Below are positions 15,455 through 64,000 of a stretch of DNA of 64,000 bases, piece after piece. Both the position numbers and the translations under genes were made by a program. The notes under the pieces are model-generated. The model ran no database searches and had not been told where the DNA came from. It saw nothing but the letters and a program-made list of their open reading frames with translations. This DNA comes from Bacteroidia bacterium (lineage in GTDB: Bacteria > Bacteroidota > Bacteroidia > Palsa-965): contig JBBRYH010000010.1 of assembly GCA_038237845.1 (NCBI GenBank), positions 25,692 through 89,691 of the forward strand, in the 5' to 3' direction. The first letter of the stretch is position 1. Every line of letters begins with the position of its first letter.

Positions 15455-15520
15455 TGCGGTAGATTTCGGGTTATTCAAACATAGTGAATAATGGAGGATT
15501 GTAATATGATTTATACCCAA

Positions 15521-16435: not shown

Positions 16436-16527
16436 AGGGGTTTAAAAGTAAATGTAATAAAAGGAACCCAAATTTGTAAGGTACTTCGTGTTATCTTTGA
16501 ATGCCCTTAACACTTAATCATTTTCAA

Positions 16528-17397
16528 ATGAAAAAAATATTTACCTGTATTTTCATTACTGTTTTTCTGATCAGTTTTGAATCAAAAGCACAGCTAGCAA
16601 TTGCAACTGATAGTATTCTGCAACTTTCAACATGTGCTGGGGGAAATATTATTGTGCCTTATACTGTTTCAGGCGGAAATTATGCTTTTGGAAATATTTT
16701 CACAGCACAACTTTCAAATTCATTCGGACAATGGACAGCGCCCATTAATATTGGAACTTTATTTTACTGGTCCAGCGGAATTATTTTTTGCACAATACCT
16801 GCTAATACCAATTTCGGATTCTTTTATAGAATTCGTGTAATAGCAAGTAATCCACAGGATACAGGAAGTCAATGCCCGAACACTTTAATTATTACTCAGA
16901 TTGCGCAGCTGAATCAGATTATTTCTAATCCAGGAGATACGATGTGTGTTGGAGATTCTATAACGCTTACATCCATTAATCTTGCAACGGCTTATTCCTG
17001 GTCTACTGGCGACACAACAATGGCGATAACTGTTGGTGCTCCCGGAATTTATAGTGTTACTACAACTGATTTTCTAGGATGTGAAAGCACAACAAGCGAT
17101 ACGATTGTTTCCAGTGCTTGTACAGGCGTTTTAGAAAATGATTTAGAAAATGCCTTATCGGTTTATCCGAATCCTGCTTCAGGAAAATTGAATTTGAAAT
17201 GGAATGCAAGCGGAACAAAGTTTCTGGATTTGCACATGTATAATGCGGAAGGCGTTGAAGTAATTCGTTCTGAAAAAATAAAGGTGAACAGTATTACAGA
17301 GGTTCAGCTCGACATTTCGCAATTAGCTCCTGGCATGTATATGTTGATAATTGATAACGGAGTTTCCCGTTCGATTAAGAAAATTGTGGTGGAGTAA
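16528..17397 (+). CDS. Secreted T9SS cargo protein with a type-A CTD. Start taken at MKKIFTCIFI.
   Basis: Signal peptide. C-terminus LSVYPNPASGKLNLKW...MYNAEGVEV...LAPGMYMLIIDNGVSRSIKKIVVE. Confidence 0.75.
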   Translation: MKKIFTCIFITVFLISFESKAQLAIATDSILQLSTCAGGNIIVPYTVSGGNYAFGNIFTAQLSNSFGQWTAPINIGTLFYWSSGIIFCTIPANTNFGFFYRIRVIASNPQDTGSQCPNTLIITQIAQLNQIISNPGDTMCVGDSITLTSINLATAYSWSTGDTTMAITVGAPGIYSVTTTDFLGCESTTSDTIVSSACTGVLENDLENALSVYPNPASGKLNLKWNASGTKFLDLHMYNAEGVEVIRSEKIKVNSITEVQLDISQLAPGMYMLIIDNGVSRSIKKIVVE

Positions 17398-30857: not shown

Positions 30858-30934
30858 TGGTGGAGAATATCGGAGTCGAACCGATGACCTTCTACATGCC
30901 ATGCAGACGCTCTAGCCAGCTGAGCTAATCCCCC
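30858..30934 (-). tRNA. tRNA-Ala (anticodon GGC), 77 nt including the encoded CCA
   Basis: Manual fold: acceptor GGGGGAU/AUUCUCC with G3:U70, D-stem GCUC/GAGC, anticodon stem UCUGC/GUAGA, loop AUGGCAU, T-arm AUCGG-UUCGACU-CCGAU, 3' ACCA. ORF 30746-30937 overlapping it is spurious. Confidence 0.85.
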
Positions 30935-34529: not shown

Positions 34530-34669
34530 GAGCGTTATTTTTTCTTTTCTATATATATATTTCCCGCTTTCACCTCGACGGCGCTCGGCTTTATCGGGGC
34601 TATTTATTGCATTGCCAATATCTATTTAAAAAAATTAGACTAAATTGCATTACAAACAAAAAAAACATC

Positions 34670-35623
34670 ATGAAAAAAATTTACTCTTTAATAGTATTTG
34701 CATCAATCGGTTTTACAGCGCATAGCCAGTCTTTCTGGACAGAAGATTTCGGAACAGGTTGCAACCAGGGAAATCTTGCTAGCGCATACGCTGGTTCAAA
34801 TGGATCCTGGACAATTGCAAGTACAGGTACAAATGACCCCGACGCAAATCCTTGGTTTGTAAGCGCAACAGAAGCAGGAACTGGCGTTGGCAATTGTGGC
34901 GCTGGTTGCGGTAGTAATTCAACACTTACAAATAGAACATTGCATGTCGGTAGTACTGCTATTCCTGCATTAGGTCTCCCTGCCGATCAAGGCGCATCTT
35001 ACAATGCTGGTGGTTTGTGCAGTAGCTTTGCTATTTGTGTAATTACAAATTCACGTGCAGAATCTCCTGTCATCAATTGTGCAAATAAAACGAACATCAC
35101 ATTAACATTCAATTATTTTGAAAATGGAGATCTTGCAAATGATGATGGCTCTGTTTGGTTTTACGATGGTACAACATGGGCATTATTACAGAATACAGCT
35201 AAAACAACACTCGGCAATTGTGCTCCTCAAGGAAAATGGACAGCAATTAGCATTGTGCTTCCTGCTAGTGCAAACAATAATCCAAATGTGAAAATCGGAT
35301 TTAACTGGACCAATAACGATGATGGTGTTGGAACAGATCCTTCCTTTGCGGTGGATGATATTGCACTTACTCAATCACCATCAGGTATTGCAACTATTAC
35401 AAATAATCAACTAAACGTTGTTGTATTAGCAAATGGCCAGATAACAATCATTCCGAATGGTCAGGCCTACAAAATGCTTGCGGTTTATGATATGGTTGGA
35501 AGAGAAATAAAATTCACACAAACAGAAAATACAATTTCACTCGGCAATACTGCTCCGGGAATTTATATTATCAATTTGGATGTGAACGGAACGCGTGTGG
35601 TGAAGAAAGTAGTTATGAATTAG
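34670..35623 (+). CDS. Secreted T9SS cargo protein with a type-A CTD. Start taken at MKKIYSLIVF.
   Basis: Signal peptide. C-terminus PGIYIINLDVNGTRVVKKVVMN. Confidence 0.7.
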   Translation: MKKIYSLIVFASIGFTAHSQSFWTEDFGTGCNQGNLASAYAGSNGSWTIASTGTNDPDANPWFVSATEAGTGVGNCGAGCGSNSTLTNRTLHVGSTAIPALGLPADQGASYNAGGLCSSFAICVITNSRAESPVINCANKTNITLTFNYFENGDLANDDGSVWFYDGTTWALLQNTAKTTLGNCAPQGKWTAISIVLPASANNNPNVKIGFNWTNNDDGVGTDPSFAVDDIALTQSPSGIATITNNQLNVVVLANGQITIIPNGQAYKMLAVYDMVGREIKFTQTENTISLGNTAPGIYIINLDVNGTRVVKKVVMN

Positions 35624-35960: not shown

Positions 35961-37283
35961 ATGAATAAGTTTAAAGCAATCGTCGCGAAATGGACGATCC
36001 CGTTTATTTTACTGATATCAGTATGGTATTCCTCGAATATTCATTGGGGAAAACAATGGAATTCCATCATCACCTCTGATGGTAAAGGATATTATGCCTA
36101 CTTGCCCGCTACGTTTATTTATCATGATCTCAACTTTGGATTTTTCGATTCGATAGAGACCAAATATTACACAGCACAATTGAAATATGATTTCCGGTCA
36201 AGTTCAAAAGAAGGGAAAATCATTGATAAATATTTCAGTGGTGTTGCTGTTTTGCAGTTGCCATTTTTTCTTGGCGGGCACGCAGTTGCAAAACTTTCAG
36301 GTGCTGAAGCTGACGGTTATTCAAAACCCTATGCCATCGCTTTAAATATAGGAGCATGCTTCTGGCTACTTATCGGATTAATCTTTCTGCGGCGGCTGTT
36401 GATCTCTTTTGGCGCCAGCCACTTAAAGGCTGCTTTGGTTTTGTTGACATTTGTTTTTGGCACTAATCTTTTTTATTATGTCATTAGTGAACCGGCGATG
36501 TCGCATGTTTATTCTTTCTCGCTGATCAGTATTTTTCTTGTTTACAGTAAAAAATGGCTGGACACGCTGCGGAATAAATATTTTCTGTTGATGTGTCTTC
36601 TCCTAGGAATTATCACCCTGGTGCGACCTGTCAATTTACTTATCGTATTATGGATTCCATTCGCTGCGGGTTCCTCCAAAATATTCTTTTCAGTCATTCA
36701 AGCAAACTTCAGAAAACCACTGTGCCTTGTAACCGGAATATTGCTTTTCTTCTTTCCCATCCTAATCCAGCTTGTCATTTATAAAACTTCTACTGGACAT
36801 TGGTACATTTATGCCTATGGCATCGAACATTTCTATTTCTGGAAGCCCGAGTTGATCAATTTTTTGTTCAGTTATAAAAAAGGTCTATTCATTTATACTC
36901 CTTTGACCTTTTTAGCACTTTTCGGACTGATTCCATTATGGAAAAAAGACCGCTTCCGTGCAATCTGGATGGGCTTTACGATTTTTTTTATTATGTATGT
37001 CCTTTCCTGTTGGTGGATGTGGTATTACGGAGGAAGTTTTGGTATGCGTCCGATGGTGGATTTTTTCAGCCTTTTCGCCTTGCTTTGGTATTTTCTTTTC
37101 GAATCGATGAACTCAAAAACTAAAAAGCTGGTTTTATTGACGATTACTTTTTTTCTAATTGCTTTTTGCCAATTTCAGACGCTTCAATACCGATATGAAA
37201 TCATTCACTGGTCAGAAATGACAAAAGAATCATATTGGCATGCTTTCCTGAATTTTGATTTTCTGCTGAAGAAGTTTCATTAG
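35961..37283 (+). CDS. Polytopic membrane protein (440 aa), candidate GT-C-fold glycosyltransferase. Paralog of the frameshifted gene at 56100-57897.
   Basis: First-loop motif SDGKGYYAYLPATFIYHD (ArnT/PMT-like D-x-x-x-Y-A). At least 10 TM helices. Clear homology to 56100-57897 (DGRGYYSYLPA, GTNLFYY...SEPAMSHVYSFS). Confidence 0.6.
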   Translation: MNKFKAIVAKWTIPFILLISVWYSSNIHWGKQWNSIITSDGKGYYAYLPATFIYHDLNFGFFDSIETKYYTAQLKYDFRSSSKEGKIIDKYFSGVAVLQLPFFLGGHAVAKLSGAEADGYSKPYAIALNIGACFWLLIGLIFLRRLLISFGASHLKAALVLLTFVFGTNLFYYVISEPAMSHVYSFSLISIFLVYSKKWLDTLRNKYFLLMCLLLGIITLVRPVNLLIVLWIPFAAGSSKIFFSVIQANFRKPLCLVTGILLFFFPILIQLVIYKTSTGHWYIYAYGIEHFYFWKPELINFLFSYKKGLFIYTPLTFLALFGLIPLWKKDRFRAIWMGFTIFFIMYVLSCWWMWYYGGSFGMRPMVDFFSLFALLWYFLFESMNSKTKKLVLLTITFFLIAFCQFQTLQYRYEIIHWSEMTKESYWHAFLNFDFLLKKFH

Positions 37284-49828: not shown

Positions 49829-52168
49829 ATGGCAGACGAAAAACCTATAGAAAAAGCAGCAAAGAATTCTAAAAATTCAAGCTCAGCAAAACCAAGTCAT
49901 AAACGTTGGATTCGATTTTTCTGGATTCTATTATTGACTCCTGTTGCTGGAATTGTATCGCTTGTTTTGGGAATCGCCATGTTCGCCGATCTTCCAGACA
50001 TTGAGCAATTAACAAATCCCGAAAGTAATCTTGCAACGGTTTGTTATTCTGCAGATGGAAAAGAATTAGGAAGATTTTATCTCGAAAATCGGGTTTCAGT
50101 TCAGTATAAGGATATTGATCCTGATGTTATTCATGCATTAGTTGCAACAGAGGATGAACGTTATTACGAACATTCAGGTATTGACGGAAGAAGTTTGGGT
50201 CGTGTTTTTATTAAAACATTTGCTGGTGGAGATCGTAGCTCTGGAGGAGGATCAACCATTACACAACAGCTTGCAAAAATGCAGTTTCACGCAAAAGAAG
50301 CTGAACACGCAACAAAAACACAACGTGCTTTCCAAAAATTAAAAGAGTGGATCATTGCAGTTCGACTTGAGCGCTTGTTTACGAAAGATGAGATCGTCGC
50401 ACTTTATTTAAATAAATACGATTTTAATTATAATGCGGTTGGTATTAATTCTGCAGCGAAAGTTTATTTCTCCACTACTTCCGATTCATTGAAAATTGAA
50501 GAAGCAGCAGTGCTGGTAGGAATGTGTCAGAATCCTTCACGATGGAATCCATTAATTTTTCCTGACAGCGCAATGAAGCGTAGAAATCTTGTGATGTACC
50601 AAATGGAACGCAATGGATTTATCACAAAACACCAATACGATTCTTTAAAAGCGCTTCCAATTGTTACACACTTCAATCCCGAATCACATAACGAAGGACT
50701 GGCTCCTTATTTCCGAGAATATCTGAGAGAAAATTTCATGAAGAAATGGTGTTCGGAACATTTGAAACCGAATGGCAAGCCTTACGACATGTATCGCGAC
50801 GGTTTAAAAGTTTATACGACGATTGATACACGAATGCAAACGTATGGTGAACAAGCAGTGGCTGAACACATGGCCGACTTGCAGAAGAATTTTGATATTG
50901 AATTAAAAGACAAAAGAAATCGTCCCTTCAGTTGGAAGGTGAAAAAAGAAGAGATCGATCAGATTTTAAATTCAGGGAAAGTTCGTTCCGATCGTTATCA
51001 TCATATGAAAAAAGGCGGTTCCTCTGATGCAGAAATTGAAAAGGCCTTCAATACAAAAGTGAAGATGAATGTGTTTTCATGGCATGGTGATATTGATACG
51101 ATGTTGTCGCCAATGGATTCTATTCGATATTACAAATCATTTTTACAAACAGGATTTATGGCAATGGAACCACAGACAGGATATATCCGTGCCTGGGTGG
51201 GAGGAATTAATTTCAGACATTTTCAATACGATCACGTAAAAGTTAGTAAGCGTCAAGTAGGTTCGACTTTCAAACCATTTATTTATGCGCTTGCTATTCA
51301 AGAAGGATATTCGCCTTGCGATCAGGTGCCATGTATTCGCACTTGTATTCCGAATGAAGATGGAAAAACAGAATGGTGTCCGAATAATTCATGGTCGAAA
51401 CAGGAAGAAGCAAAATACAGTGGTAAAATGATCACGTTGAAAAAAGCATTAGCGCTTTCTATCAATTATGTTTCTGCTTACATCATGAAACAATTCGGTC
51501 CGCATGCTGTTGTTGATTTTGCACGCAACGTAGGAATCACCTCGCCATTGGAAGCTGTTCCTTCATTATGTTTGGGTACTGCAGATATTAGCTTATACGA
51601 AATGGTTGGTGCGAATAGCACATTTGTAAATAAAGGAACATGGATTGAACCAACTTTTATCACGCGCATTGAAGATAAAAACGGAAAAGTGTTGGAAGAA
51701 TTTATTCCGAAATCAAAAGAAGCATTGAGTGAAGAGAAAGCTTATTTGATGATTAATCTAATGCGCGGAGTTGTTGATATTGGAACAGGAGGACGATTAC
51801 GAAGTACTTACAAAATTTTAAATCCTGTGGCAGGAAAAACAGGAACAACACAAAACAATTCCGACGGATGGTTTATGGGATTAACTCCTGATTTAGTTGC
51901 AGGTGTGTGGGTAGGAGGCGAAGATCGTAGTGTGCATTTTGATAGAACAGCGGAAGGACAAGGTGCTTCCATGGCACTTCCGATATGGGCAAAATTTTTC
52001 AAGCGGGTTTATGCAGATAAATCTTTAAAAATTTCTCAAGGAGAATTTCCGAAACCAAAAGGAAAAATAATGATGGATTTAGATTGTTCTAAATTCGATA
52101 AAGATGATGGTCCGATTTTCGATGATCCGAATTCTGGAATTTTTGGAGATGATGGTAGTTATCCTTAG
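49829..52168 (+). CDS. mrcA: Penicillin-binding protein 1A (bifunctional transglycosylase/transpeptidase)
   Basis: GT51 motifs ATEDERYYEHSGID, GGSTITQQLAK, RKxxE. Transpeptidase STFKP and KTGTT. 779 aa. Confidence 0.9.
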   Translation: MADEKPIEKAAKNSKNSSSAKPSHKRWIRFFWILLLTPVAGIVSLVLGIAMFADLPDIEQLTNPESNLATVCYSADGKELGRFYLENRVSVQYKDIDPDVIHALVATEDERYYEHSGIDGRSLGRVFIKTFAGGDRSSGGGSTITQQLAKMQFHAKEAEHATKTQRAFQKLKEWIIAVRLERLFTKDEIVALYLNKYDFNYNAVGINSAAKVYFSTTSDSLKIEEAAVLVGMCQNPSRWNPLIFPDSAMKRRNLVMYQMERNGFITKHQYDSLKALPIVTHFNPESHNEGLAPYFREYLRENFMKKWCSEHLKPNGKPYDMYRDGLKVYTTIDTRMQTYGEQAVAEHMADLQKNFDIELKDKRNRPFSWKVKKEEIDQILNSGKVRSDRYHHMKKGGSSDAEIEKAFNTKVKMNVFSWHGDIDTMLSPMDSIRYYKSFLQTGFMAMEPQTGYIRAWVGGINFRHFQYDHVKVSKRQVGSTFKPFIYALAIQEGYSPCDQVPCIRTCIPNEDGKTEWCPNNSWSKQEEAKYSGKMITLKKALALSINYVSAYIMKQFGPHAVVDFARNVGITSPLEAVPSLCLGTADISLYEMVGANSTFVNKGTWIEPTFITRIEDKNGKVLEEFIPKSKEALSEEKAYLMINLMRGVVDIGTGGRLRSTYKILNPVAGKTGTTQNNSDGWFMGLTPDLVAGVWVGGEDRSVHFDRTAEGQGASMALPIWAKFFKRVYADKSLKISQGEFPKPKGKIMMDLDCSKFDKDDGPIFDDPNSGIFGDDGSYP

Positions 52169-54054: not shown

Positions 54055-56016
54055 TTGTCGAAAGAATATTTTCATATGAATTCAATTCGCAATTTGACAA
54101 ATCTACGCAGTCTTGTAAAAACAACTTTCAGAAAAATAATTAGTCGCTGGTATTTAATTGTACCGGCGATTTTACTTTTTATTTATGTAGCAATTCGTGC
54201 ATCTCGACTTTCTATCACTTGGGATGAAGCCAATACTTTTTTCGAATATGTACGTACTCCGCGCTGGCTGCCGGAAAGCTACAATTACATCTCTGCCAAC
54301 AATCACCTGCTGAACACGTGGCTGATGAAAGGCTCCGTTTTCCTGTTCGACGAAAGTGAATTTGCTTTACGTCTTCCGAATGTTATCGCGGGTGGATTTT
54401 ATTTTTACGCGGCTGCCCTGCTCGCAAAATGTATTGCGGAGAAGCGCTGGCAGATCTTTATCGCTTTTATTTTATTATGCGCGAATCCTTTTGTGCTGGA
54501 TTTTTTCAGCGTCGCGCGCGGCTATGGAATTTCAATCGCACTGCTGATGCTTGGAATTGTGCAGATCACAAAATATGTTTTCAGAAATCAGCAAATCAGC
54601 AATGGAATTTATGCACAGCTTTTCTTAGCACTCGCCGTTATCGCCAACCTTACACTGCTCCACGCGATGCTGGCCGTTTCTTTTATATTGATGCTGCACC
54701 GTTTTATTTTTCATCGCACGGAGCATCCTACACGCACAATAATGCTCTTTTCAATTATTCCTTTCTCAACGCTGCTCCTGCTTGTTCCTTACTTCATCAA
54801 GCTGAAGAACGCCGGGGCCTTTTTTTACGGCGAAGAAGTAAAATCTCTTGGCGATACATTCCTGTCCTTATCCAAAGCTTCGGCATATTACACTTCCTAC
54901 AGTTATATCCTGGCTCCTGTAATGACGGTGCTTGTTGCCGCCATTCCGCTGATCACGGTAATTCATGTCATGCGAAATCCTTTGACCGTGATGAAAGACA
55001 CGCGGGGAAAATGGCTGGTGTTTATCACGCTCTTGTTATTTTTTACCATCGCCGGACCAATGTTGCAGCACTTGTTTTTCGGAACCAACTTTCTTTCCGG
55101 GCGCACAGCTTTATTTTACATTCCACTGATCAGCCTGAATTTTTTAGGAGTGCTGATGCTGCTTCCCAATCGGTTGAAAAATATTCTGCTGATGCTGGCA
55201 GGAACATTTTCAATCACCCATTTATGTTTCGCGGCTAACACCCGTTTTACGTACGACTGGAAAGAGCAGGCTGATGTAAAAGATGCGATGATGGAATTAA
55301 AAAAGAGGAACATCCCGGTTGCGGAAAATTGCTTCGCTGATATTCTTTCGACCGACCTTCCTTATGAAAAGCAGGTCAATTATTACCGGATGCGATTTGA
55401 AATGAATAACTATTCGCATGCAGCAAGAAATGAAAGTGTGCCCATGTGCAGCAGCTATTATCTGGACAAAAACGGGTACCGCAATCGCGAACAGGAAACA
55501 AAACACGCAGAACCGATCTGTAGTTTTTCGATGAGCAGCACCTGGCTCTTTTATTTTCCTCTTGAAAGGATGAAGCTAAAATTACACTCCGTGAAAGAAG
55601 TCTGGCAGGATTTTGAACATGAAGACCCTTATCTTGAATTAAAAACGGACACTATTTATTTCGGCGACAAGGGAACATTTGCAAATGCAGAACATCCATA
55701 CAGCATCAGTGTGCCGATAGAAGTTCCCGATTCGGTAAAAGGAAATCTCGTGGCGACAATGAATTGCAGATTATATTATTACACGAGAAATACTTCAGCG
55801 CTGTTGGTTTTCGGATTTGATGATGGCGGGACAGAGACTTGGGAAGCAATGCATATTACAGAATTGCCTGAAAAACCCGGAACATGGTCCATTACTTCAT
55901 GGACGCGCCCTGTGCCTGCAGGAACAAAAAAAGTGCGGGTTTATATTTGGAATTATGATAAAATTCCGGTGCTGATGGATAATGTGACGGTGCGATTGCT
56001 TGCTTATGGACAGTAA
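54055..56016 (+). CDS. ArnT/PMT-like GT-C-fold glycosyltransferase (653 aa): N-terminal polytopic membrane domain with a DE first-loop motif plus a C-terminal periplasmic beta-rich domain. Compositionally GC-rich.
   Basis: LSITWDEANTFFEYV (DE motif), FALRLPNVIAGG (GT39/83-like). Paralog of 58278-59954. Confidence 0.65.
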   Translation: MSKEYFHMNSIRNLTNLRSLVKTTFRKIISRWYLIVPAILLFIYVAIRASRLSITWDEANTFFEYVRTPRWLPESYNYISANNHLLNTWLMKGSVFLFDESEFALRLPNVIAGGFYFYAAALLAKCIAEKRWQIFIAFILLCANPFVLDFFSVARGYGISIALLMLGIVQITKYVFRNQQISNGIYAQLFLALAVIANLTLLHAMLAVSFILMLHRFIFHRTEHPTRTIMLFSIIPFSTLLLLVPYFIKLKNAGAFFYGEEVKSLGDTFLSLSKASAYYTSYSYILAPVMTVLVAAIPLITVIHVMRNPLTVMKDTRGKWLVFITLLLFFTIAGPMLQHLFFGTNFLSGRTALFYIPLISLNFLGVLMLLPNRLKNILLMLAGTFSITHLCFAANTRFTYDWKEQADVKDAMMELKKRNIPVAENCFADILSTDLPYEKQVNYYRMRFEMNNYSHAARNESVPMCSSYYLDKNGYRNREQETKHAEPICSFSMSSTWLFYFPLERMKLKLHSVKEVWQDFEHEDPYLELKTDTIYFGDKGTFANAEHPYSISVPIEVPDSVKGNLVATMNCRLYYYTRNTSALLVFGFDDGGTETWEAMHITELPEKPGTWSITSWTRPVPAGTKKVRVYIWNYDKIPVLMDNVTVRLLAYGQ

Positions 56017-56099
56017 GCATTAGTTATCTAAAGCCTCACTCAGAATATTGAGAAAAGTCTGGTGATATTGCTATTACCCATCTTATATTCGCATTTGAA

Positions 56100-57897
56100 A
56101 TGAATAAACGAATGCGAAATTTTAAGCAGTTAGTGGTCAGGAATCTGATGGTAATTTTTTTATTGGCAACTGCTTTCGTAGCGTTTTGTGCTTCGTTTGA
56201 TAGAATGGGAGTGAATGAAGGATGGAGACGAACAGTTTTCATGGATGGTCGTGGTTACTATTCTTATCTGCCGGCACTTTGTATTTATAACGACCCTTCC
56301 TGTTCGTTTTATTCCAAGCAATCAGCAGCACAGCCCGACTCCGCGAATTTCATGAATAAAGTTGATGGGAAAACTTGTCAATAAATATTTTGTAGGTGAA
56401 GCATTGTGTCAGGTCCCTTTTTTTACACTTTCCCATTTGTATGCAAAGTTATTTGATGAAGAAACAAACGGCTATTCGAAGCCATACCAATATGGTGTTG
56501 GAATCGCTGCTGTGTTTTATTTTTTGCTGGGATTGTTTTTCCTCTGGAAATTTTTGAAATCCTTTGAATTCAGGATTGGTGTAATTCTGTTCGTATGTGT
56601 GTGTGTAGCCTTTGGGACGAATCTTTTTTATTATGCGGTTTATGAACCATCCATGGCACATGTTTACTCCTTTTCTTTTATCACAGGATTTTTATTCTTT
56701 ACCCGCTCATTTCTCTTATCACCATCAGGAAAGGGAATAATTATTATCGCAGCGTTTACGGGAATGATTACATTGATCAGGCCGGTTGATATAATGATTG
56801 TTTTTGCTTTTCCTTTTCTTGCAGGAAATTTTGAAAATTTAAAAAATGCAATGGGTTGGATGAAGAAACATTTACTCTTTCTTGTTCCCGCACTTGCGCT
56901 TTTTCTTTTAATTGTATCCCTTCAGCTTTTGCTTTATTATTGGCAAACAGGTCATTTCTTCCTATGGAGTTATCAAAGTGAAGGATTTGATTTTGCTCAC
57001 CCGCATATTTATAGAACGCTTTTCAGCTATGAGAAAGGCCTTTTTATTTATACTCCGATTGCATTTGTTTCGCTTTTCGGATTGTTAGTAATGCCTTTTC
57101 GTTCACGCTATTTATTCCTCACATTACTTCCTGTACTTGGGATCATTGTTTTTGTCGTTTCTTCATGGCACGACTGGAGATATGGATTTTCTTTTGGATT
57201 GCGGGCATATATCGAATTTTACGCATTATCTGCTTTTACTTTGGCCTACCTGATTGATTTTGCTTCAAAGCGAAGAATTATTTTCGCTTTTACAGGATTG
57301 ATTTTTTCAGCACTGATTAGTTTCTATTTAATCCAGCAATATCAATTTAACCATCGGATCTTGCACCCGGGGTCAATGAATAAAGAACGGTATTACCTTG
57401 TTTTTCTTCACACTGAAAAAAAGTACGAAGATACTTTATCGCGAATTCCTTATGTGATGGAATCCGAAGGGGATTTTAATGACATGGAAGGCTCTGTTGA
57501 TTGGCCGGGACTTGAAACCATTAAAAAGGGCCTTTCTCATTCCGGGGAGGCTGCTTCACGCATTGATTCCGCTTCACCCTACTCGGCTGGTTTTTGTCGT
57601 AGCATGTCGGATGACGATTTTAATACACCTTCAACAATCAAGATCTCAGCCTGGGTCTTAAGAAAAAACGAGAACGATAATGGAAGTATAGGGATTTACC
57701 TAACAAGTAATGATAGTGTTTTGTTCTCGAAAGATATTGATCTCAACGAGCTTACCAAAACAGGTGCATGGACCAATGTGAAGCAAGAAATAATTATTCC
57801 GGCAAGAAAAACGGAGCGTGAATATTTAAGGGTTCTTTTTTTTCACAGCAGCGGAACAACTTATATTGATGACTTTTCTGTAGAAATTGTGAAATAA
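56100..57897 (+). pseudogene. GT-C-like polytopic membrane protein (paralog of 35961-37283) disrupted by a +1 frameshift in an A4 run at 56370-56373
   Basis: Frame 1 ...DGRGYYSYLPA...NFMNKVDGKTCQ*. Frame 2 resumes GKLVNKYFVGEALCQVPFF, homologous to GKIIDKYFSGVAVLQLPFF of the intact paralog. Deleting one A restores DGKLVNKYF. Confidence 0.55.
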
Positions 57898-57964
57898 AGA
57901 AGCCAAAATTGACTGGACTTCTTTATTTCACAATCCGAGTAGTTATCCGAAGACCTAAGCCTGT

Positions 57965-58255
57965 TTATTGATTAATGTACTTTGAAATTTTAATGTTCCC
58001 ATTAACATTGCTTCTTATAAAATAAATCCCTTTGTTTTCTGTAGTGATATCCACATCTATTTCTGACGATGATGTAGTTGCTTCGTAGACAATTCTGCCA
58101 GCTATATCAAATACTGTGATGGAATTTATTTCTTCTCCACTGTTAGAAACAATTTTGAATTGTCCCGAACCGGGATTGGGATAGATTGTTACATCGTTTT
58201 GTACAATTGAATTTGTTTCCGGGGGAATAACATTTGCAGGTTCTGGATTTGCCAT
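57965..58255 (-). pseudogene. Orphan T9SS type-A C-terminal sorting-domain fragment with no cargo or signal peptide
   Basis: ...TIYPNPGSGQFKIVSNSGEEINSITVFDIAGRIVYE...GIYFIRSNVNGNIKISK is a complete Por_Secre_tail, but nothing precedes it. Confidence 0.5.
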
Positions 58256-58277
58256 ACGGTACAAGTATGCACCACAT

Positions 58278-59954
58278 TTCGGTGAAAGTGAATTTGCTTT
58301 GCGCTTACCGAATGTTTTGGCAAGTGGTATTTATTTTTATGCCTCCGCCGCTTTAGCAGAAAAACTGACCAAGAAGAAATGGCAGGTCATGATTATTTTT
58401 CTCTTATTGAGTTTGAATCCTTATGTGCTTGATTTTTTCAGCCTCGCACGGGGATATGGTATTTCTATTGCGATGATGATGCTCGGCATTTTACAAATTA
58501 CAAAGTACATTCTAGGGAATCACGAAATCAAAAATGGAATGTATGCGCAACTCTTTTTTTCTGCCGCCGTCTTCGCAAACCTGACGATGATTCATGTTTT
58601 GCTGGCATTCTCATTCTTATTGGTGATCAATCGTTTTGTTTTTCATCGTAATAACAAAATGCTACGTGCAGGACTCCTTTTTTCTGCAATTCCATTGAGC
58701 ACCCTGCTCATTTTGATTCCTTACCTGAATCATATGAAAGCTGCCGGAGCATTTTTTTATGGAGAAGAAGCAAAATCATTAGCCGATACTTTTTTATCGC
58801 TGTCGAAAGCAATGTCGTATGACCGCTTCTATGACAAACAGCTAACCCCTCTGCTAACGATTTTGTTTTCGGCTATTCCTCTCATTTCAGTGACTTATGC
58901 CATGCGTAATGTAAGTACGGTAATGAAAAGCGGGCAGGGGAGATGGTTGGTGTTTATTACGTCGGCCTTGTTTTTTACCATCGCCGGACCGATGTTACAG
59001 CATCTGCTTTTCAAAACAAATTTTCTTTCCGGAAGAACAGCTTTGTTTTATATTCCGTTGATCGGATTGAATTTGATCGGATTGATGATTTTATCTCCCA
59101 TGAAATTGAAAAATGGCTTGTTGATGCTCACGGGATTATTTTCTATCATTCACTTTTCTTTTTCGAATAATTACTACTTCAGTTATGATTGGAAAGAACA
59201 GGCTGATGTGAAACAAGCTATGATTGATTTGAAAAAGGAAAATATCCGTTTGACGGACAACTGCTTCGCGAATATCCTTTCAACAGATTTACCTTTCGAA
59301 AAACAAATTAATTATTATCGGATGAGATTGAATCTGGCCAATTTCTCTCATGCTGCTAGGAGAGAAGAAGTGGCTGCCTGTAGTAGTTATTATCTGGACG
59401 TCGACGGACATGACAGAGTGAAGGCCGCAAATAAAAGTCGGTACTTAAAAAACATTCACGACTATTCTGTGAGTGGGACATGGCTGTTTAATTTTCCTGT
59501 ATTGAAAAGTTCTCCGACATTGAACCTTGTCACCGAAGTCTGGCAGGATTTCGAACACGAAGATCCTTATCTCGAATTAAAAACAGACACGATTTATTTT
59601 GGTAATAAAGGAACATATGCGAATAACATTCATCCATTCAGTATTGGTGTTCCGCTCAATATTCCGGATTCCGTAACAGGAAATTTGGTGGCGACAGTTA
59701 ATTGCCGATTGTATTATTACACAAGAAATACATCTGCATTGCTAGTTTTCGGGTTTGACAATGGGAATGCTGAAACTTGGGAGGCCATGCACATTACGGA
59801 ATTGCCTGAAGGACCAAAAACCTGGAGTATTACTTCATGGACCAGACCTGTTCCTTCTGGCACTAAGAAGATCAGAGTTTACCTATGGAATACAGACAAA
59901 ACTCTGGTGTTAATGGATAATGTAGCCTTACGATTGCTTGTAGATGCAAATTGA
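58278..59954 (+). pseudogene. 5'-truncated, AT-rich paralog of GT-C gene 54055-56016. Homology begins at FGESEFALRLPNV; the N-terminal ~100 aa including the DE-motif loop are absent.
   Basis: Alignment with paralog A. Upstream sequence is the antisense of the CTD remnant. The only in-frame start is a TTG at 58299. Confidence 0.5.
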
Positions 59955-60013
59955 AAATATTTGAGGCAATTTCCCCCTCTCAAAATCGTATATTTGCTCA
60001 ATATTATTATCCA

Positions 60014-60742
60014 ATGAAAAAACTCTCCATCGTAATACCGGCCTACAATGAAGCCAGGACAATCCATCTTATCCTCAACAAAGTACTCGCAGTGGAATTA
60101 CTCGGCGGTTTTGAAAAGGAAATTATGATCGTCAATGATTTTTCATCGGATGCTACGAAAGAAGTAATTGAAAAATATATTGCGGAACATCCTGCTGCGA
60201 ATATTCGTTTGTTCAATCAGCCGAAGAACATGGGTAAAGGCGCTGCACTTCACAAAGGAATTGAAATTGCAAGTGGCGATTATATTGTTATTCAGGATGC
60301 CGATCTCGAATATGATCCGGAAGAATTTAATGTCCTGCTTAAGCCGGTTCTTTCAGGATTTGCTGATGTTGTTTTCGGTTCTCGTTTTATGGGCGGAAAA
60401 CCGCATCGCATTTTATTTTTCTGGCATACCATTGGAAATAAATTCCTCACCAAACTTTCCAACATGTTTACCAATCTGAATCTTTCAGATATGGAAACCT
60501 GTTACAAATTGTTCGATGCAAAAATGGTTCAATCACTTTTGCTGAAAGAAAATCGTTTCGGATTTGAACCAGAAGTCACTGCAAAAATTTCAAGAATAAA
60601 AGATGTCCGCATTTACGAAGTAGGAATTTCATACTACGGTCGTACCTATGAAGAAGGAAAAAAAATCGGATGGAAAGATGGCTTCCGCGCGATCTGGTGC
60701 ATTTTACGTTACAATCTTTTTGACACCCGCCACCTGAAATAA
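60014..60742 (+). CDS. GT2 polyprenol-phosphate sugar synthase (DPM1/ArnC/GtrB-like)
   Basis: [44 protein letters not shown] (DxD). Confidence 0.85.
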
Positions 60743-60746
60743 GGGG

Positions 60747-63065
60747 ATGAATTTCAAACACACATTTGTAAGAGTTTTCAGCGACAAAGGATTGTTGCTC
60801 ACACTCTTTTTGAGTTTACTCATGATGTTATTGTTTTATGGAAAACTCTTATTGCATCCGGGTCATACTTATTTTGGAGCGCAAGGCGATGGCATGCAAA
60901 TTTATTACGAGACACTTTTTCATATTAAATTTGATACGGCTTGGTGGTCACAAAACAGTGTAAATTATCCTTACGGTGAAAGTATTTTCTTTACCGGCGC
61001 AATGCCTTTCGTAAATAACCTGGCAAAACTTTTCGGAACTTCAGCCGGCCCACTTGGTGTAGCAATCATTAATTTGATGATGATTTTTTCGCCGGTGATT
61101 GGGGCGCTTTTTATTTACGCCATCTTTCGTCATTTGCGTTTGCCTTGGCATTATGGCGGAGTGTGTGCTACTTTCATCGCTTATCTTTCTCCGCAATTGT
61201 TGCGGATGTATGGACACTATTCTTTGCAATGGGTTTTTCTCATTCCTGCAATGTTTTATTTATTACTTCGGTTTTATGATCAGCCGAGTGTACTAAAAAG
61301 TTTTACAATTGCATTTCTTGTTTTTTTAGGCGCTTCTACACATTTATATTTTCTGGCATTCTTTGGCGCAATCGGCGGAGCTTATTGGGCGATTTTGTTT
61401 TTAACCCGAGACAGAGGCTTTGGAAGATTTACTTATGTACTCAAACATGCAGGAATTCAATTTGTCTTGCCAGTTCTGATCCTGCAAACTTTAGTAATTA
61501 TGTCGGACCATGTTGCAGACAGAACCATCGCTCCTTGGGGATTCCTTTTTTATCATTCTAATTTTAGCGGCGTATTTTTCCCTTCAGGAAAAATATATGA
61601 AGAATTTTTTAGATTATTCAGCACTCCTGAGAATGTCGATTTAGAAGGAATTGCTTATGTAGGAATTGCCGCAATTATTGGATTCATTACCATTATTATT
61701 ATCCAACTAGTCCGCTTGTTCCGTGGGCGTGTTAAACTCTTTTTAGAAGTAAGCGATAATAAAGTTCTCAATATATTTTTCTGGACTTCACTTGTTATGT
61801 TATGGTTTTCATTTGGACATCCGTTCGTTGGATCGCATGAGGACTGGTTGCCTTATCTTGGTCCGATACGACAGTTTCGTTCTGTTGGTCGCTTTACTTG
61901 GGTCTTTTTTTATATCATAAATATTATTGCAGTATATCGATTGTATAAAATTGTACAGCAACGAAAGGTAATTTCTTATGCAATTATGTTACTAATATCT
62001 TCTCTTCTTTTTATTGATGCTTATTCACTTAATAAAGAAATGCAGGATAAATTCAATAATCATATTTCTGCTTTGGATGATGAAATGAATTTGTTGCCTG
62101 AAAATGCTTGGATGAAAAATTTCAATGCTAAAGAGTATCAAGCCATTTTACCTTTGCCATACTTTCATATTGGTTCAGAAAATCTCTGTCGCCCTTCTCC
62201 GGATGCGAAAATTGTTCAATGGAGTTATGTCGTCTCATTAAAAACAGGACTTCCTTTAATGGGAGTTGCTTCTGCTAGAGTTTCATTGGGACAAACAGCC
62301 AATATGGTGCCACTAGTTTTGGATCCGATTTTACCGATACCGGTTTTAAAAGATATTAAAGATACACGTCCATTATTGATTGTAGTAAGAGAAGAATTAT
62401 TGGATGAATTCGAAAGAAAAATACTTTCATTTGCAAAGCCTATTGGTACTTCGACTAATTATAAAATCTATTCCTTAGACCCTGCTGCATTGCGAAGTTT
62501 GCCTGAAATGCGTTACAATGAAATCAAATCGAGTTATGTGGCCTCTAAACATTTCTCATCAGGAGTTTTTTCAACAACGGATTCAGCAGCTTTTTTCATT
62601 TATCATTCTTTTGATCATTCGAAAAATAAAAATGCCTATAGAGGAGATGGAGCATACGAAGGAAAAATAATAGACAACAATGTCATATTTGATAGTACAA
62701 TTTCTATTCCTGGAAATTACGTAGGTTCTTTCTGGTTTAATAATATGGACGGTGATATTTATCCGAGAATGACCATTGAGGTTTTTTCAACTGATCCAAG
62801 TGATAAAGTAAAACCATTTTACTTTTATTCGAATGCAAGTGTGCAAACAAAAGCAATGGATGGACATTGGGGCCTGATAGAATTCCCACTGACTGTAGTG
62901 GCTCCGAATGGACATGTCAAAGTAACCGTGTGGAACCGAGAAATGAAAAAGATAGACGTTTTTCAAATTGATGAATTATTAATTCGCCCTGCAACAACTG
63001 ATTTATATTTACTAATAGGTGATACTATTATCAGAAACACAAGAACATATTTTCCACACAAATGA
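60747..63065 (+). CDS. Large polytopic membrane protein (772 aa) with a periplasmic C-terminal domain. Candidate GT-C glycosyltransferase playing a YfhO/ArnT-like role.
   Basis: N-terminal motif GAQGDGMQIYYETLFHI. About 12 TM helices. Soluble C-terminal half ending ...IDVFQIDELLIRP, like other cluster members. 4-nt gap to the upstream GT2 and ATGA overlap with the downstream GT2. Confidence 0.55.
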   Translation: MNFKHTFVRVFSDKGLLLTLFLSLLMMLLFYGKLLLHPGHTYFGAQGDGMQIYYETLFHIKFDTAWWSQNSVNYPYGESIFFTGAMPFVNNLAKLFGTSAGPLGVAIINLMMIFSPVIGALFIYAIFRHLRLPWHYGGVCATFIAYLSPQLLRMYGHYSLQWVFLIPAMFYLLLRFYDQPSVLKSFTIAFLVFLGASTHLYFLAFFGAIGGAYWAILFLTRDRGFGRFTYVLKHAGIQFVLPVLILQTLVIMSDHVADRTIAPWGFLFYHSNFSGVFFPSGKIYEEFFRLFSTPENVDLEGIAYVGIAAIIGFITIIIIQLVRLFRGRVKLFLEVSDNKVLNIFFWTSLVMLWFSFGHPFVGSHEDWLPYLGPIRQFRSVGRFTWVFFYIINIIAVYRLYKIVQQRKVISYAIMLLISSLLFIDAYSLNKEMQDKFNNHISALDDEMNLLPENAWMKNFNAKEYQAILPLPYFHIGSENLCRPSPDAKIVQWSYVVSLKTGLPLMGVASARVSLGQTANMVPLVLDPILPIPVLKDIKDTRPLLIVVREELLDEFERKILSFAKPIGTSTNYKIYSLDPAALRSLPEMRYNEIKSSYVASKHFSSGVFSTTDSAAFFIYHSFDHSKNKNAYRGDGAYEGKIIDNNVIFDSTISIPGNYVGSFWFNNMDGDIYPRMTIEVFSTDPSDKVKPFYFYSNASVQTKAMDGHWGLIEFPLTVVAPNGHVKVTVWNREMKKIDVFQIDELLIRPATTDLYLLIGDTIIRNTRTYFPHK

Positions 63066-63787
63066 ACCTGAGCATTATTCTTCCTTCTTATAAAAGTGCC
63101 GATATATTGCGTGAGCAATTACCGCCTTTTATGGCTTGGCTGAAAATGAAATCATGGACAACAGAAATAATTATTGTTGATGATGGTTCTGATGATAGTG
63201 GTGCAACTGGAAAAGTTGCGGCAGAAAATGGCTGCATATTTTTTCAACAGGAAGTAAATAAAGGGAAGGGTGCTGCAGTAAGAAGAGGAATGCTTGCCGC
63301 AAAAGGAGAATACAGAATTTTTACAGATGCAGATATTCCTTTTGAGTATGAAGCTATTGAACTATTTTTTCATTATGTAAAAGAAAAGGAATTTGATATT
63401 GCGATTGGTGATCGACGTCTTCCTGAATCAAAATATTTCAGCGAAATAAAAGGTGCGAGAAAAATGGGAAGTAATATTTTTACATTTTTTGTTGGACGAT
63501 TTATAACTACCGGATTTTCGGATACACAGTGCGGCATCAAAGCATTCAAAGGAAAAGTTGCAGACGATTTGTTTTCAGTTGCAACTGTAGATGGATTTGC
63601 ATTTGATGTGGAACTACTTTACATCGCCCTTAAAAGAAACTACGACATCAAACGTCTACCCGTTCATTTCCGAAGCTCTCACGACGGCTCCTCTGTAAGT
63701 TTATTGAAACACGCTCCTGGAATGCTCATGGATCTTTTTCAAGTGAAATTGAATCATATACGAGGGAGATACTTGAAAAAAAATTAA
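63062..63787 (+). CDS. GT2 polyprenol-phosphate sugar synthase (DPM1/Alg5-like), second copy
   Basis: LSIILPSYKSADIL, IIIVDDGSDDSG, NKGKGAAVRRG, FTDADIPFE. Confidence 0.85.
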   Translation: MNLSIILPSYKSADILREQLPPFMAWLKMKSWTTEIIIVDDGSDDSGATGKVAAENGCIFFQQEVNKGKGAAVRRGMLAAKGEYRIFTDADIPFEYEAIELFFHYVKEKEFDIAIGDRRLPESKYFSEIKGARKMGSNIFTFFVGRFITTGFSDTQCGIKAFKGKVADDLFSVATVDGFAFDVELLYIALKRNYDIKRLPVHFRSSHDGSSVSLLKHAPGMLMDLFQVKLNHIRGRYLKKN

Positions 63788-63873
63788 ATTTTGAGTTCTG
63801 AATTTTGAATCAATCAAGATATTTCGAATAATTAAAATTAGCATTACCTTCACCTTCAATTCAAAATTATTTC

Positions 63874-64000
63874 ATGAACAGAGACATCACCAACGTAATA
63901 CGCTATTTCATGGATGAGTGGATTCCACCCGTTATCCGTGATAGTCGCTGGTTTATGTATCCGTTTTTTATGTTTGCCTATCGCGGAAAAAATATCCGTG
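63874..64000 (+). CDS. Partial CDS at the window end (N-terminus MNRDITNVIRYFMDEWIPPVIRDSRWFMYPFFMFAY), probably another membrane component of the glycosylation cluster
   Basis: Open frame from the ATG at 63874 to the window end. Confidence 0.35.
   Translation, partial: MNRDITNVIRYFMDEWIPPVIRDSRWFMYPFFMFAYRGKNIR

Follow-up and report, generated by a model that had tools for sequence, protein, structure and literature searches.

A Bacteroidota gene cluster of GT2 and GT-C enzymes as a candidate extracytoplasmic glycosylation system

The closest described counterparts of the locus considered here are the GtrA/GtrB/Gtr(type) three-component systems of O-antigen modification in Shigella and Salmonella, following the concept of Mann & Whitfield (PMC11127046), the DPM1 (Ppm1) and PMT (GT39) pairs of eukaryotes and actinobacteria, the mycobacterial Emb/Aft arabinosyltransferases and the ArnC/ArnT aminoarabinose pathway. 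To these can be added Pfam DUF6311 (PF19830) and NCBIfam NF047440 (LA_3751/LA_3752), both uncharacterised family bins; literature searches on DUF6311 and on LA_3751 returned nothing.

The cluster lies at the end of a 64,000-nucleotide stretch of DNA from a Bacteroidia bacterium, the whole of which is called the window in the following. With a probability of about 0.7, it is an extracytoplasmic glycosylation system in which a polyprenyl-phosphate-sugar synthase works with a GT-C transferase: most likely, lipid-linked sugars are made in the cytoplasm and put onto a surface molecule beyond the inner membrane. This reading draws on the protein folds and conserved residues as well as on gene coupling, synteny and a gene fusion. 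The gene order is A1-B-(CTD fragment)-A2-GT2a-C-GT2b-methyltransferase, and further GT-C genes (D and E) are found elsewhere in the window:

A1, 54055-56016, forward strand: intact 653-aa GT-C glycosyltransferase of a divergent PMT_2-like family
B, 56100-57897, forward strand: GT-C gene split into ORFs 56100-56384 and 56362-57897
T9SS CTD fragment, 57965-58264, reverse strand: orphan Por_Secre_tail (PF18962, 2.2e-13) of 99 aa, without upstream gene body
A2, 58278-59954, forward strand: 5'-truncated A1 paralogue, 66% identity; the listed ORF starts at TTG 58299
GT2a, 60014-60742, forward strand: 242-aa soluble GT-A enzyme (family GT2) of the DPM1/AglJ/ArnC/GtrB type (PF00535, 9e-31)
C, 60747-63065, forward strand: intact 772-aa DUF6311 (PF19830) protein
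GT2b, 63062-63787, forward strand: 241-aa soluble GT2 enzyme (PF00535, 1.5e-17)
Methyltransferase, 63875-64000, forward strand: 5' end of a class I SAM-dependent enzyme, 232 aa in full, extending past the window
D, 35961-37283, forward strand: 440-aa GT-C paralogue of the B family that lacks the C-terminal β-sandwich (B-family HMM score 521)
E, 11746-13158, reverse strand: PMT_2/ArnT-like GT-C gene in a single frame, with an in-frame TAG at 12469-12471

As in the Gtr systems, a GT2 polyprenyl-phosphate sugar synthase gene adjoins that of a polytopic GT-C transferase, conservation of the synthase contrasts with variable and exchangeable GT-C genes and, in distant relatives of the locus, a 310-aa GtrB/PgfS-like GT2 gene stands beside the DUF6311 gene. 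However, GtrA is absent here, GT2a and GT2b (about 240 aa) lack the pair of TM helices at the C-terminus of GtrB, the GT-C proteins greatly exceed their Gtr counterparts in size and have an added CBM-like domain, the module includes a methyltransferase, and the locus is syntenic and sits on the chromosome, not on a prophage. The likeness to DPM1 and PMT is mainly structural: yeast protein O-mannosyltransferase Pmt4, then Pmt2, is the best structural match of A1 and of C, with Pmt1 also among the top matches, and a core of about 11 TM helices, the Asp-Glu pair of A1, the proximity of GT2a to Dol-P-Man synthase and A1 homologues that pass the Pfam PMT_2 score complete the resemblance. On the other hand, the MIR domain is replaced here by a CBM-like β-sandwich, B and C match neither PMT nor PMT_2, and the acceptor is more likely a glycan.

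AftA, AftB, AftD and EmbA/B/C are also among the structural matches, and the Emb/Aft enzymes share with the cluster a GT-C core followed by a C-terminal lectin/CBM-like domain and the adjacency of paralogous genes, but they show no sequence similarity, belong to another phylum with another envelope, and use the decaprenyl-phosphate-arabinose pathway where the donor here presumably comes from a DPM1-like GT2. The ArnC/ArnT pathway likewise couples a GT2 Und-P-sugar synthase to a GT-C enzyme, and both ArnC and ArnT (the latter also by structure) are among the matches; yet none of A1, B and C matches the ArnT equivalog model, ArnA/B/D and ArnE/F are absent here, and ArnT has no CBM-like domain. 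As for the family bins, C is a member of DUF6311, whereas B resembles NF047440 only weakly, membership being rejected at 35.7 bits against a cutoff of 200; D gives a weak match to NF047440 (1.9e-8) and another to DUF6541.

Membrane proteins of the cluster

The initial annotation had proposed at least four membrane proteins with a conserved loop-1 motif, and this holds for A1, B and C. A1, in which WDEANTFFEY is located, has about 11 TM helices, the invariant D57-E58 directly past TM1 and a C-terminal CBM-like β-sandwich at residues ~510-653. B had been taken as two ORFs, which are the halves of one gene: the 94-aa ORF 56100-56384, containing DGRGYYSYLPA, and the 511-aa ORF 56362-57897 are separated by a 1-nt insertion (+1; an extra A) in GGGAAAAC at ~56368-56375, and tblastn with the intact homologue P0241 covers B in two frames. 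Its loop-1 motif is DGxGYYxYLP, with D43 invariant, and its C-terminal β-sandwich is as in A1 and C. The layout of C comprises a GT-C membrane core of ~11 TM helices, a periplasmic α/β middle domain and the C-terminal CBM-like β-sandwich; DGMQIYYET is located in C, and the invariant D48 lies within GDG after TM1. The fourth protein does not fit the description: A2 aligns to A1 residues 98-649 (blastp and tblastn) and, since the alignment begins only at residue 98, is devoid of TM1 and of the catalytic WDE loop. The same searches recovered the missing N-terminus nowhere else in the window, and A2 is probably inactive. Where the orphan T9SS CTD fragment abuts A2, on the opposite strand, a rearrangement or deletion has joined the two; the independent Logan assembly L086 shows this junction too.

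Across the 27-30 aligned homologues of each family the loop-1 Asp is invariant (D57/E58 in A1, D43 in B, D48 in C), so that the motifs are no chance occurrences, and in both predicted models it opens the helix that follows TM1. All motifs quoted earlier are in place, including the C-terminal strands MDNVTVRLL, IDDFSVEIV and IDELLIRP, and their suspected similarity is borne out by hhalign, which aligns the B and A1 families over the membrane core and C-terminal domain (99.5%, E 3e-22), and B and C over the last ~100 residues (95.8%, E 8e-9). Thus, the strands belong to one homologous domain common to the three families.

Searched against Pfam, the A1, B and C sequences gave no family at E ≤ 0.1, and profile searches for a transporter or non-GT family returned no match for the membrane proteins. 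The DUF6311 assignment of C comes from precomputed Pfam matches on the identical protein; the B membrane domain has no Pfam match, and its very large family (5669 representatives at 50% identity) is without a Pfam model. B and C were also considered as members of the ArnT, PMT or YfhO families and rejected by sequence searches; they share with these only the fold and the working logic. Because profile searches against PDB sequences gave no match, the GT-C assignment of C rests on the predicted structure; C is the putative conserved core transferase of the module.

With regard to the two additional members proposed elsewhere in the window, D does belong to the B family, although without the C-terminal domain, while E is PMT_2/ArnT-like (PMT_2 3.4e-11; ArnT PRK13279 8e-6, a weak match) and interrupted by its TAG codon. 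That the family is expanded and fast-evolving is consistent with the variable gene content, the pseudogenes and an apparently horizontally exchanged A1 allele: A1 and its counterpart in L087 share 97.6% nucleotide identity, with flanking genes at 76-78%, and B shares only 33% identity with the gene that follows in L087.

GT2 enzymes, methyltransferase and gene neighbourhood

Both GT2 genes noted beside the membrane genes are PF00535 members, and the resemblance to polyprenol-phosphate glycosyltransferases anticipated for them is found in each case. The best PDB match of GT2a is the Pyrococcus Dol-P-Man synthase PfDPMS (5mlz, 8e-16), with which its DAD motif is aligned, followed by ArnC and GtrB, and AglJ is its curated-family match (2e-30); from these relatives we infer that GT2a would be a polyprenyl-phosphate sugar synthase. 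GT2b, whose best curated families are Dol-P-hexose transferase (1.4e-14), AglJ and PpgS, is probably a second lipid-phosphate sugar synthase, less certainly than GT2a. Its closest solved structure is TarP (4.5e-11), then ArnC and DPMS; TarP acts on a polymer acceptor and is not a polyprenyl-phosphate enzyme. Both proteins score far under every NCBIfam equivalog cutoff; no TM helices are predicted in GT2a, and neither protein has the TM helices with which GtrB and ArnC end.

The tight coupling of the genes is confirmed, with a 4-nt gap between GT2a and C (60742/60747) and an ATGA overlap between C and GT2b (63062-63065) indicating translational coupling. The start codon of GT2a was fixed from its L001 orthologue at 60014, so that A2 and GT2a do not overlap. 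After GT2a-C-GT2b, a methyltransferase gene follows. The N-terminus of its product is 90% identical to that of the gene after GT2b in L001, and the full gene, with Methyltransf_11/31/23 domain matches, is found in L086 (99.97% identical to the window).

Of 79 related loci, 60 have a GT2 gene no more than 300 nt from the C-family gene, and at a limit of 1.5 kb the count rises to 67; the pairing is kept across distant Bacteroidota. Relatives retain the order PBP1a, CoA-transferase, one or two A1-like GT-C genes, GT2, DUF6311, GT2, methyltransferase and, in distant ones, the neighbour of the C-family gene is a bona fide GtrB/PgfS/ArnC-type GT2 of 310 aa (PgfS 1e-91, ArnC 1e-53). In the natural fusion P0517, a GT2a-type domain (60% identity to GT2a) is joined to a B-family GT-C. 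The GT2 relatives, the pairing and the fusion all support the logic of a lipid-linked sugar serving a GT-C enzyme, as the initial annotation had it. In 34 of 81 loci, a methyltransferase gene is found at ≤3.5 kb from a C-family gene; in Prolixibacteraceae, one separates the GT2a-type and B-family genes. The conserved core of the locus is GT2a-C-GT2b-methyltransferase, and A1, B and A2, between CoA-transferase B and GT2a, are a variable accessory GT-C set, whose genes are gained, exchanged and lost between lineages by analogy with the serotype-converting Gtr enzymes.

Proposed pathway and alternative readings

As homology suggests, GT2a and probably GT2b would act as peripheral cytoplasmic GT-A enzymes transferring a monosaccharide from a nucleotide-sugar to undecaprenyl phosphate. 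The sugar, or the lipid-linked intermediate, is probably methylated by the neighbouring SAM methyltransferase, as the gene association suggests. The cluster and the annotated relatives contain no gene for a GtrA-, ArnE/F- or Wzx-like flippase, and a protein encoded outside the cluster would flip the lipid-linked sugar. On the periplasmic face, the DUF6311 protein C would, again by homology, move the sugar to its target through the invariant first-loop Asp, with A1 as a possible accessory enzyme for the same reaction; B and A2, now disrupted, may once have acted likewise. The C-terminal CBM-like β-sandwich common to the three GT-C families may help to recognise the acceptor, and as such points to a glycan (of LPS/O-antigen, capsular polysaccharide, exopolysaccharide or a glycoprotein) rather than a lipid or peptide that carries no sugar.

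It is unlikely that the GT-C proteins work on diphosphate-linked oligosaccharides, as oligosaccharyltransferases, ligases or polymerases, with the GT2s as ordinary cytoplasmic glycan builders: the locus has no initiating phosphoglycosyltransferase, Wzx or further glycan-building GTs, and the direct fusion of a GT2a-type domain to a B-family GT-C, together with the classical GtrB/ArnC-type enzymes adjoining distant C-family genes, is the signature of monosaccharide-phosphate donors. An ArnC/ArnT-like single-sugar modification of lipid A or the LPS inner core, altering surface charge or antimicrobial-peptide resistance, appears similarly improbable. It would account for the ArnT and ArnC matches, structural and sequence-based, and for the weak ArnT match of the separate gene E; some lipid A modification loci also combine a GT2 and a GT-C with no dedicated flippase in the operon, as is the case here.

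Quite improbable is protein O-mannosylation, with GT2a making undecaprenyl-phosphate mannose and C and/or A1 transferring it directly to Ser/Thr of secreted proteins, a scheme favoured by the ranking of Pmt4 and Pmt2 and by the Asp-Glu pair in loop 1 of A1, which is typical of PMTs. Dol-P-Man synthase, the closest match of GT2a, also fits it. A 2025 review (PMC12871550) reports that mannose starts the glycan core in Bacteroidota, that neither the OTase nor the core machinery has been discovered and that methylation of the O-glycans is frequent, and it recommends a search for PMT homologues. If O-mannosylation were true, the cluster would supply the first step of the general O-glycosylation core of Bacteroidota, and the methyltransferase would account for the methylated sugars.

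It is highly improbable that the cluster has lost its function in this genome and survives as a decaying remnant. Two of its four membrane genes are broken (B by frameshift, A2 by 5' truncation), which probably leaves part of the cluster inactive here, E has an in-frame stop and the orphan T9SS CTD fragment marks a rearrangement; however, the damage is confined to accessory genes, A1, GT2a, C, GT2b and the methyltransferase being intact, the conserved order of the core is accompanied by translational coupling among GT2a, C and GT2b, and many contigs carry members of the ≥90%-identity cluster to which GT2a belongs.

The extracytoplasmic glycosylation system thus proposed would follow a familiar scheme, that of a polyprenyl-phosphate-sugar synthase working with a GT-C transferase, of which the enzymes here are new, uncharacterised members from unstudied families.

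Layout of the cluster and corrected gene models

In the ORF listing of the 50-64 kb part of the window, housekeeping genes come first and the flagged cluster follows. The latter encodes candidate GT-C membrane proteins (A1, B, A2 and C, the last assigned to DUF6311 by precomputed Pfam matches), small soluble GT2 enzymes flanking C (GT2a and GT2b) and a SAM methyltransferase; D (B-family, 35961-37283) and E (PMT_2/ArnT-like, 11746-13158) are further GT-C genes elsewhere in the window. All motif strings quoted in the initial annotation were found in this listing.

Features of the cluster and its 5' flank
49829-52168, PBP1a, 5' of the cluster and followed by two CoA-transferase subunits
54055-56016, A1, 653 aa
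56100-56384, 5' part of B, 94-aa ORF
56362-57897, 3' part of B, 511-aa ORF
57965-58264 (-), Por_Secre_tail fragment, 99-aa ORF
58299 (TTG) to 59954, A2 as listed
59951-60742, GT2a as listed; corrected start 60014
60747-63065, C, 772 aa
63062-63787, GT2b, 241 aa
63875 to window end, 5' end of the methyltransferase gene, the ORF running off the window

Several of these models required revision. The two ORFs of B align with a single intact homologue (P0241, 597 aa), in frame +1 up to '...NKVDGK' and in frame +2 from 'GKLVNKY...'; because of this switch of frame, B is read as one gene with a 1-nt insertion in the run GGGAAAAC near 56368-56375. A2 is 66% identical to A1, but the alignment is limited to A1 residues 98-649, with homology starting at 58278, and the 97 residues it lacks, comprising TM1 and the WDE loop, are found nowhere else in the window. 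Directly 5' of A2, the minus-strand ORF encodes an isolated Por_Secre_tail (T9SS C-terminal) domain (PF18962, 2e-13) without a gene body, and looks like a rearrangement scar. The A2 junction recurs in the independently assembled Logan contig L086 (SRR19962011), which is 99.97% identical to window 57496-64000, so that an assembly artefact is ruled out for A2; the B frameshift lies outside the span covered by L086.

The tight coupling of C to both GT2 genes, noted in the initial annotation, stands, the GT2a/C junction being TAA-GGGG-ATG and C and GT2b overlapping in ATGA. The coupling it had also proposed between A2 and GT2a disappears, since alignment with a GT2a orthologue places the GT2a start at 60014 and leaves a 59-nt spacer after A2. 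The ORF at 63875 is the beginning of a 232-aa class I SAM methyltransferase. A 269-aa ORF wholly within A1 in an alternative frame, at 54429-55238 (+), is presumed to be a by-product of the higher GC content of A1. By tRNA and Rfam scans, the sole RNA gene detected in the window is a tRNA-Ala(GGC) at 30858-30934 (-), far from the cluster, the Rfam scan at gathering score returning nothing else; counts from a σ70 promoter and terminator scan, which does not cover Bacteroidota promoters, were close to shuffle expectation.

Fold of the membrane proteins and nature of the GT2 enzymes

Family profiles place the membrane proteins poorly. Scanned against Pfam and NCBIfam, A1, B, A2 and C matched no family well enough to be of use; in particular, none of the four matches PMT_2 (PF13231; GT39/GT83-like, gathering threshold 26.1 bits) at E <= 0.1, while gene E exceeds this threshold with 44 bits. 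For A1, 186 homologues were detected, many of which carry PMT_2 or are named GT39 proteins, and two of them, when rescanned, passed the threshold (P0006, 72% identical, 27.1 bits; P0025, 31.1 bits). PF19830 (DUF6311) is found in the precomputed matches for P0121 (100% identity to C), for the L086 gene that is identical to C and for almost all C homologues; the local Pfam copy, apparently without the DUF6311 model, returned no match for C or P0121. The B family is far larger, with 5669 representatives of 50%-identity clusters at E <= 1e-3, and Pfam covers the membrane part in none of the 10 members scanned. The NCBI model NF047440 (LA_3751/LA_3752 'putative glycosyltransferase') is not reached by B (35.7 bits) or D (33.6 bits) against a cutoff of 200, and no paper on DUF6311 or LA_3751 came up in literature searches.

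Profile-profile comparison nevertheless ties the families to each other: B matches the A1 family with 99.5% probability (E 3e-22) over the membrane core and C-terminal domain, B and C have their last ~100 residues in common (95.8%, E 8e-9), and C is weakly related overall to A1 (82%). As alignment profiles of the A1 and C families gave only noise against PDB sequences (E above 0.5), fold comparison of models was required. The polytopic membrane core superposes on solved GT-C enzymes of the PMT/STT3/ArnT/ALG/Aft-like fold class A. The structural comparison scores of A1 are 23.5 for Pmt4, 21.5 for Pmt2, 19.7 for ALG12, 19.0 for AglB and 18.4 for ArnT, with Foldseek concurring, and Pmt4 is the top match for C as well. 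That these proteins are transporters is ruled out by the fold evidence.

The catalytic Asp of GT-C enzymes sits just after TM1, and family alignments reveal an invariant acidic residue at this position, namely D57/E58 in the A1 family, D43 in the B family and D48 in the C family; A2 is without the corresponding segment. In the models, the Asp opens the helix that follows TM1, itself formed by residues 32-51 in A1 and 14-35 in C. Both A1 and C are modelled with ~11 membrane helices and have basic N-termini, from which we infer a periplasmic location for the Asp loop and the C-terminal domain.

GT2a and GT2b are ~240-aa PF00535 proteins (9e-31 for GT2a) in which hydropathy predicts no TM segments, the C-terminal TM anchor of the GtrB/ArnC/PfDPMS subtype being missing. 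Soluble lipid-phosphate sugar synthases exist, such as human DPM1 and PpgS. The best solved relatives of GT2a are the Pyrococcus Dol-P-Man synthase (PfDPMS, 8e-16), whose DADL motif aligns with that of GT2a, ArnC and GtrB, and its top curated family is AglJ (2e-30), at 106 bits against an equivalog cutoff of 325. Top NCBIfam matches of GT2b are Dol-P-hexose transferase, AglJ and PpgS, the best at 53.6 bits against an equivalog cutoff of 375; in the PDB, TarP ranks ahead of ArnC and DPMS. GT2a thus combines a GT-A GT2 domain and a DAD motif with closest similarity to lipid-phosphate sugar synthases; the same is less clear for GT2b, whose assignment is softer because TarP leads its PDB matches.

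Conserved core and variable accessory genes in related loci

The order PBP1a, CoA-transferase A, small ORF, CoA-transferase B, one or two A1-like GT-C genes, GT2, DUF6311, GT2 and methyltransferase is kept in two close relatives (GCA_016194975.1 and a 4.96-Mb JGI contig). More broadly, a scan of species-representative genomes found C-family proteins encoded at no fewer than 562 loci, and the best 79 of these at least 562 loci are nearly all from Bacteroidota (Prolixibacteraceae, Maribellus, Rikenellaceae, Cytophagales and many uncultured Bacteroidia). Searched with HMMs built here, 60 of the same best 79 have a GT2 gene no more than 300 nt away from the C-family gene, a number that rises to 67 if the limit is set at 1.5 kb, and 27 of them have PMT_2-like or B-family genes at a distance of up to 5 kb. 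A class I methyltransferase gene is found no further than 3.5 kb away in 34 of 81 loci. At distant loci (31-38% identity), the neighbour of the C-family gene encodes a 310-317-aa enzyme which, from its similarity to PgfS (1e-91) and ArnC (1e-44 to 1e-53), is a classical membrane-anchored Und-P-sugar synthase. In Prolixibacteraceae the order is GT2a-type, methyltransferase, B-family GT-C, GtrB-like GT2 and DUF6311. Finally, P0517 (775 aa, from a Bacteroidales MAG) is a natural fusion of a B-family GT-C membrane domain with a GT2a-type domain that shares 60% identity with GT2a across 232 aa, and constitutes a Rosetta-stone link between the two families. Structure apart, the fusion and the adjacency counts provide the best evidence that these GT2 enzymes supply the membrane transferases, and they indirectly support the view that the latter would draw, on the extracytoplasmic side, on a sugar donor linked to polyprenyl-(di)phosphate.

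Some relatives have additional genes around the module. Proteins of 470-530 aa, without a Pfam match, flank it at L001 7551-9146 (-), L001 13855-15273 (-) and L045 12174-13772 (-), one of them weakly matching the AZOBR_p60025 'cell surface glycopolymer formation' family. They could supply components that the module lacks, e.g. a flippase or polymerase. One or two additional PMT_2 genes (611-623 aa) lie directly 5' of CoA-transferase A in the related loci L087 (5796-7658) and L003 (1-3509), in L087 between PBP1a and CoA-transferase A; the window has none there.

The stretch from CoA-transferase B to GT2a varies among relatives. Some have one or two A1-like genes; L001 carries, between its A1-like gene and GT2, an unrelated gene on the opposite strand whose 531-aa product, one of the flanking proteins listed above, is polytopic by sequence; and the B-family gene of some relatives is just 33% identical to B. 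A1 itself is 97.6% identical at the nucleotide level to the syntenic gene in GCA_030154765.1 (L087 9632-11478), compared with 76-78% for the flanking CoA-transferase and PBP1a genes, and has a GC content of 42.8% with a GC3 of 46%, against a GC3 of 26-36% in its neighbours. With an identity far above that of its flanks and this GC3 contrast, A1 seems to have undergone a recent horizontal exchange. Furthermore, three of the seven GT-C genes of the window are disrupted, namely B (+1 frameshift, 56368-56375), A2 (5' truncation, 58278) and E (in-frame TAG, 12469-12471); no other disrupted gene was noticed among those examined. The turnover between CoA-transferase B and GT2a, which resembles that of surface-variation loci, argues that the accessory GT-C enzymes are dispensable and that the GT2a-C-GT2b-methyltransferase core is maintained. 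All three GT-C loci of the window adjoin a gene or fragment with a T9SS C-terminal sorting domain (Por_Secre_tail; 13715-15520 (-), 16501-17397 (+), 34607-35623 (+) and 57965-58264 (-)), an adjacency that may be due to chance, such genes being dense in the window.

Proposed function and alternative readings

The initial annotation had read the cluster as GT2 lipid-linked sugar synthases working with GT-C transferases in a glycosylation system, and both the observation and this interpretation prove essentially correct. Both DUF6311 and the B family seem to consist of GT-C glycosyltransferases supplied by DPM1-like synthases. In the cytoplasm, GT2a, and probably GT2b, would load a monosaccharide onto undecaprenyl phosphate, and the methyltransferase would act on this sugar or on the intermediate that carries it. 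There are precedents for altering a lipid-linked sugar ahead of its transfer, in ArnD, NaxD and the pentofuranose systems of PMC11127046. A flippase encoded elsewhere would then export the intermediate. The textbook three-component layout of synthase, flippase and GT-C includes a flippase gene, whereas this locus is without one: no GtrA-like or ArnE/F-like ORF was found in 54-64 kb, and the Pfam annotation of the loci in relatives shows no GtrA family. In the periplasm, C, with A1 as an accessory enzyme, would hand the sugar to an acceptor that the CBM-like domain may help to bind. GT-C enzymes with CBM-like domains, such as Emb and AftD, act on glycans. By this analogy we favour a glycan as the probable acceptor, be it LPS/O-antigen, capsule or exopolysaccharide, or the glycan of a glycoprotein.

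Other assignments have been weighed against this one. An ArnT-like modification of lipid A seems unlikely, and an OST/ligase-like use of diphosphate-linked glycans is judged equally doubtful. The ArnT equivalog PRK13279 matches none of A1, B, A2 and C, and E alone matches it, with 24.7 bits against a cutoff of 567. Protein O-glycosylation deserves a fuller account. A DPM1-like enzyme would make undecaprenyl-phosphate mannose, and a Pmt4-like GT-C would set the first, often methylated, core sugar on Ser/Thr, or extend or decorate the core in the periplasm, the module and the PMT-like GT-C enzymes being then part of the missing Bacteroidota machinery. According to a 2025 review, the Bacteroidota O-glycan core starts with mannose, the transferase machinery is undiscovered and PMT homologues are worth seeking (PMC12871550); a literature search found no later identification of a Bacteroidota O-mannosyltransferase. 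The rank of Pmt4 in the structural comparisons of both A1 and C, the PMT-like Asp-Glu pair in A1 and the similarity of GT2a to Dol-P-Man synthase all speak for such a role. However, the accessory domain is CBM-like rather than MIR/TPR, the genes are patchy and prone to turnover, and the model O-glycosylating genera are absent from the best 79 of the at least 562 C-family loci, and O-mannosylation is considered improbable.

That a lipid-phosphate sugar synthase and a GT-C transferase work together is well known and, the class of mechanism being well established, the gain lies in annotation and targeting rather than in a new principle. The new elements are the placing of DUF6311 and the B family under this principle, the CBM-like module common to them, the frequent methyltransferase partner and the layout of conserved core and variable accessory genes in environmental Bacteroidota. 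Thus, two large uncharacterized membrane-protein families, DUF6311 and a Pfam-less family of more than 5,000 clusters at 50% identity, are given a structural and mechanistic assignment, and a GT2-GT-C-GT2-methyltransferase module with exchangeable accessory GT-C genes is defined in environmental Bacteroidota. In a phylum whose extracytoplasmic glycosylation, including steps of O-glycan core synthesis, is poorly understood, the module would indicate that a surface glycan is decorated with (methylated) sugars in the periplasm, after its assembly, and would suggest a route to surface variation.
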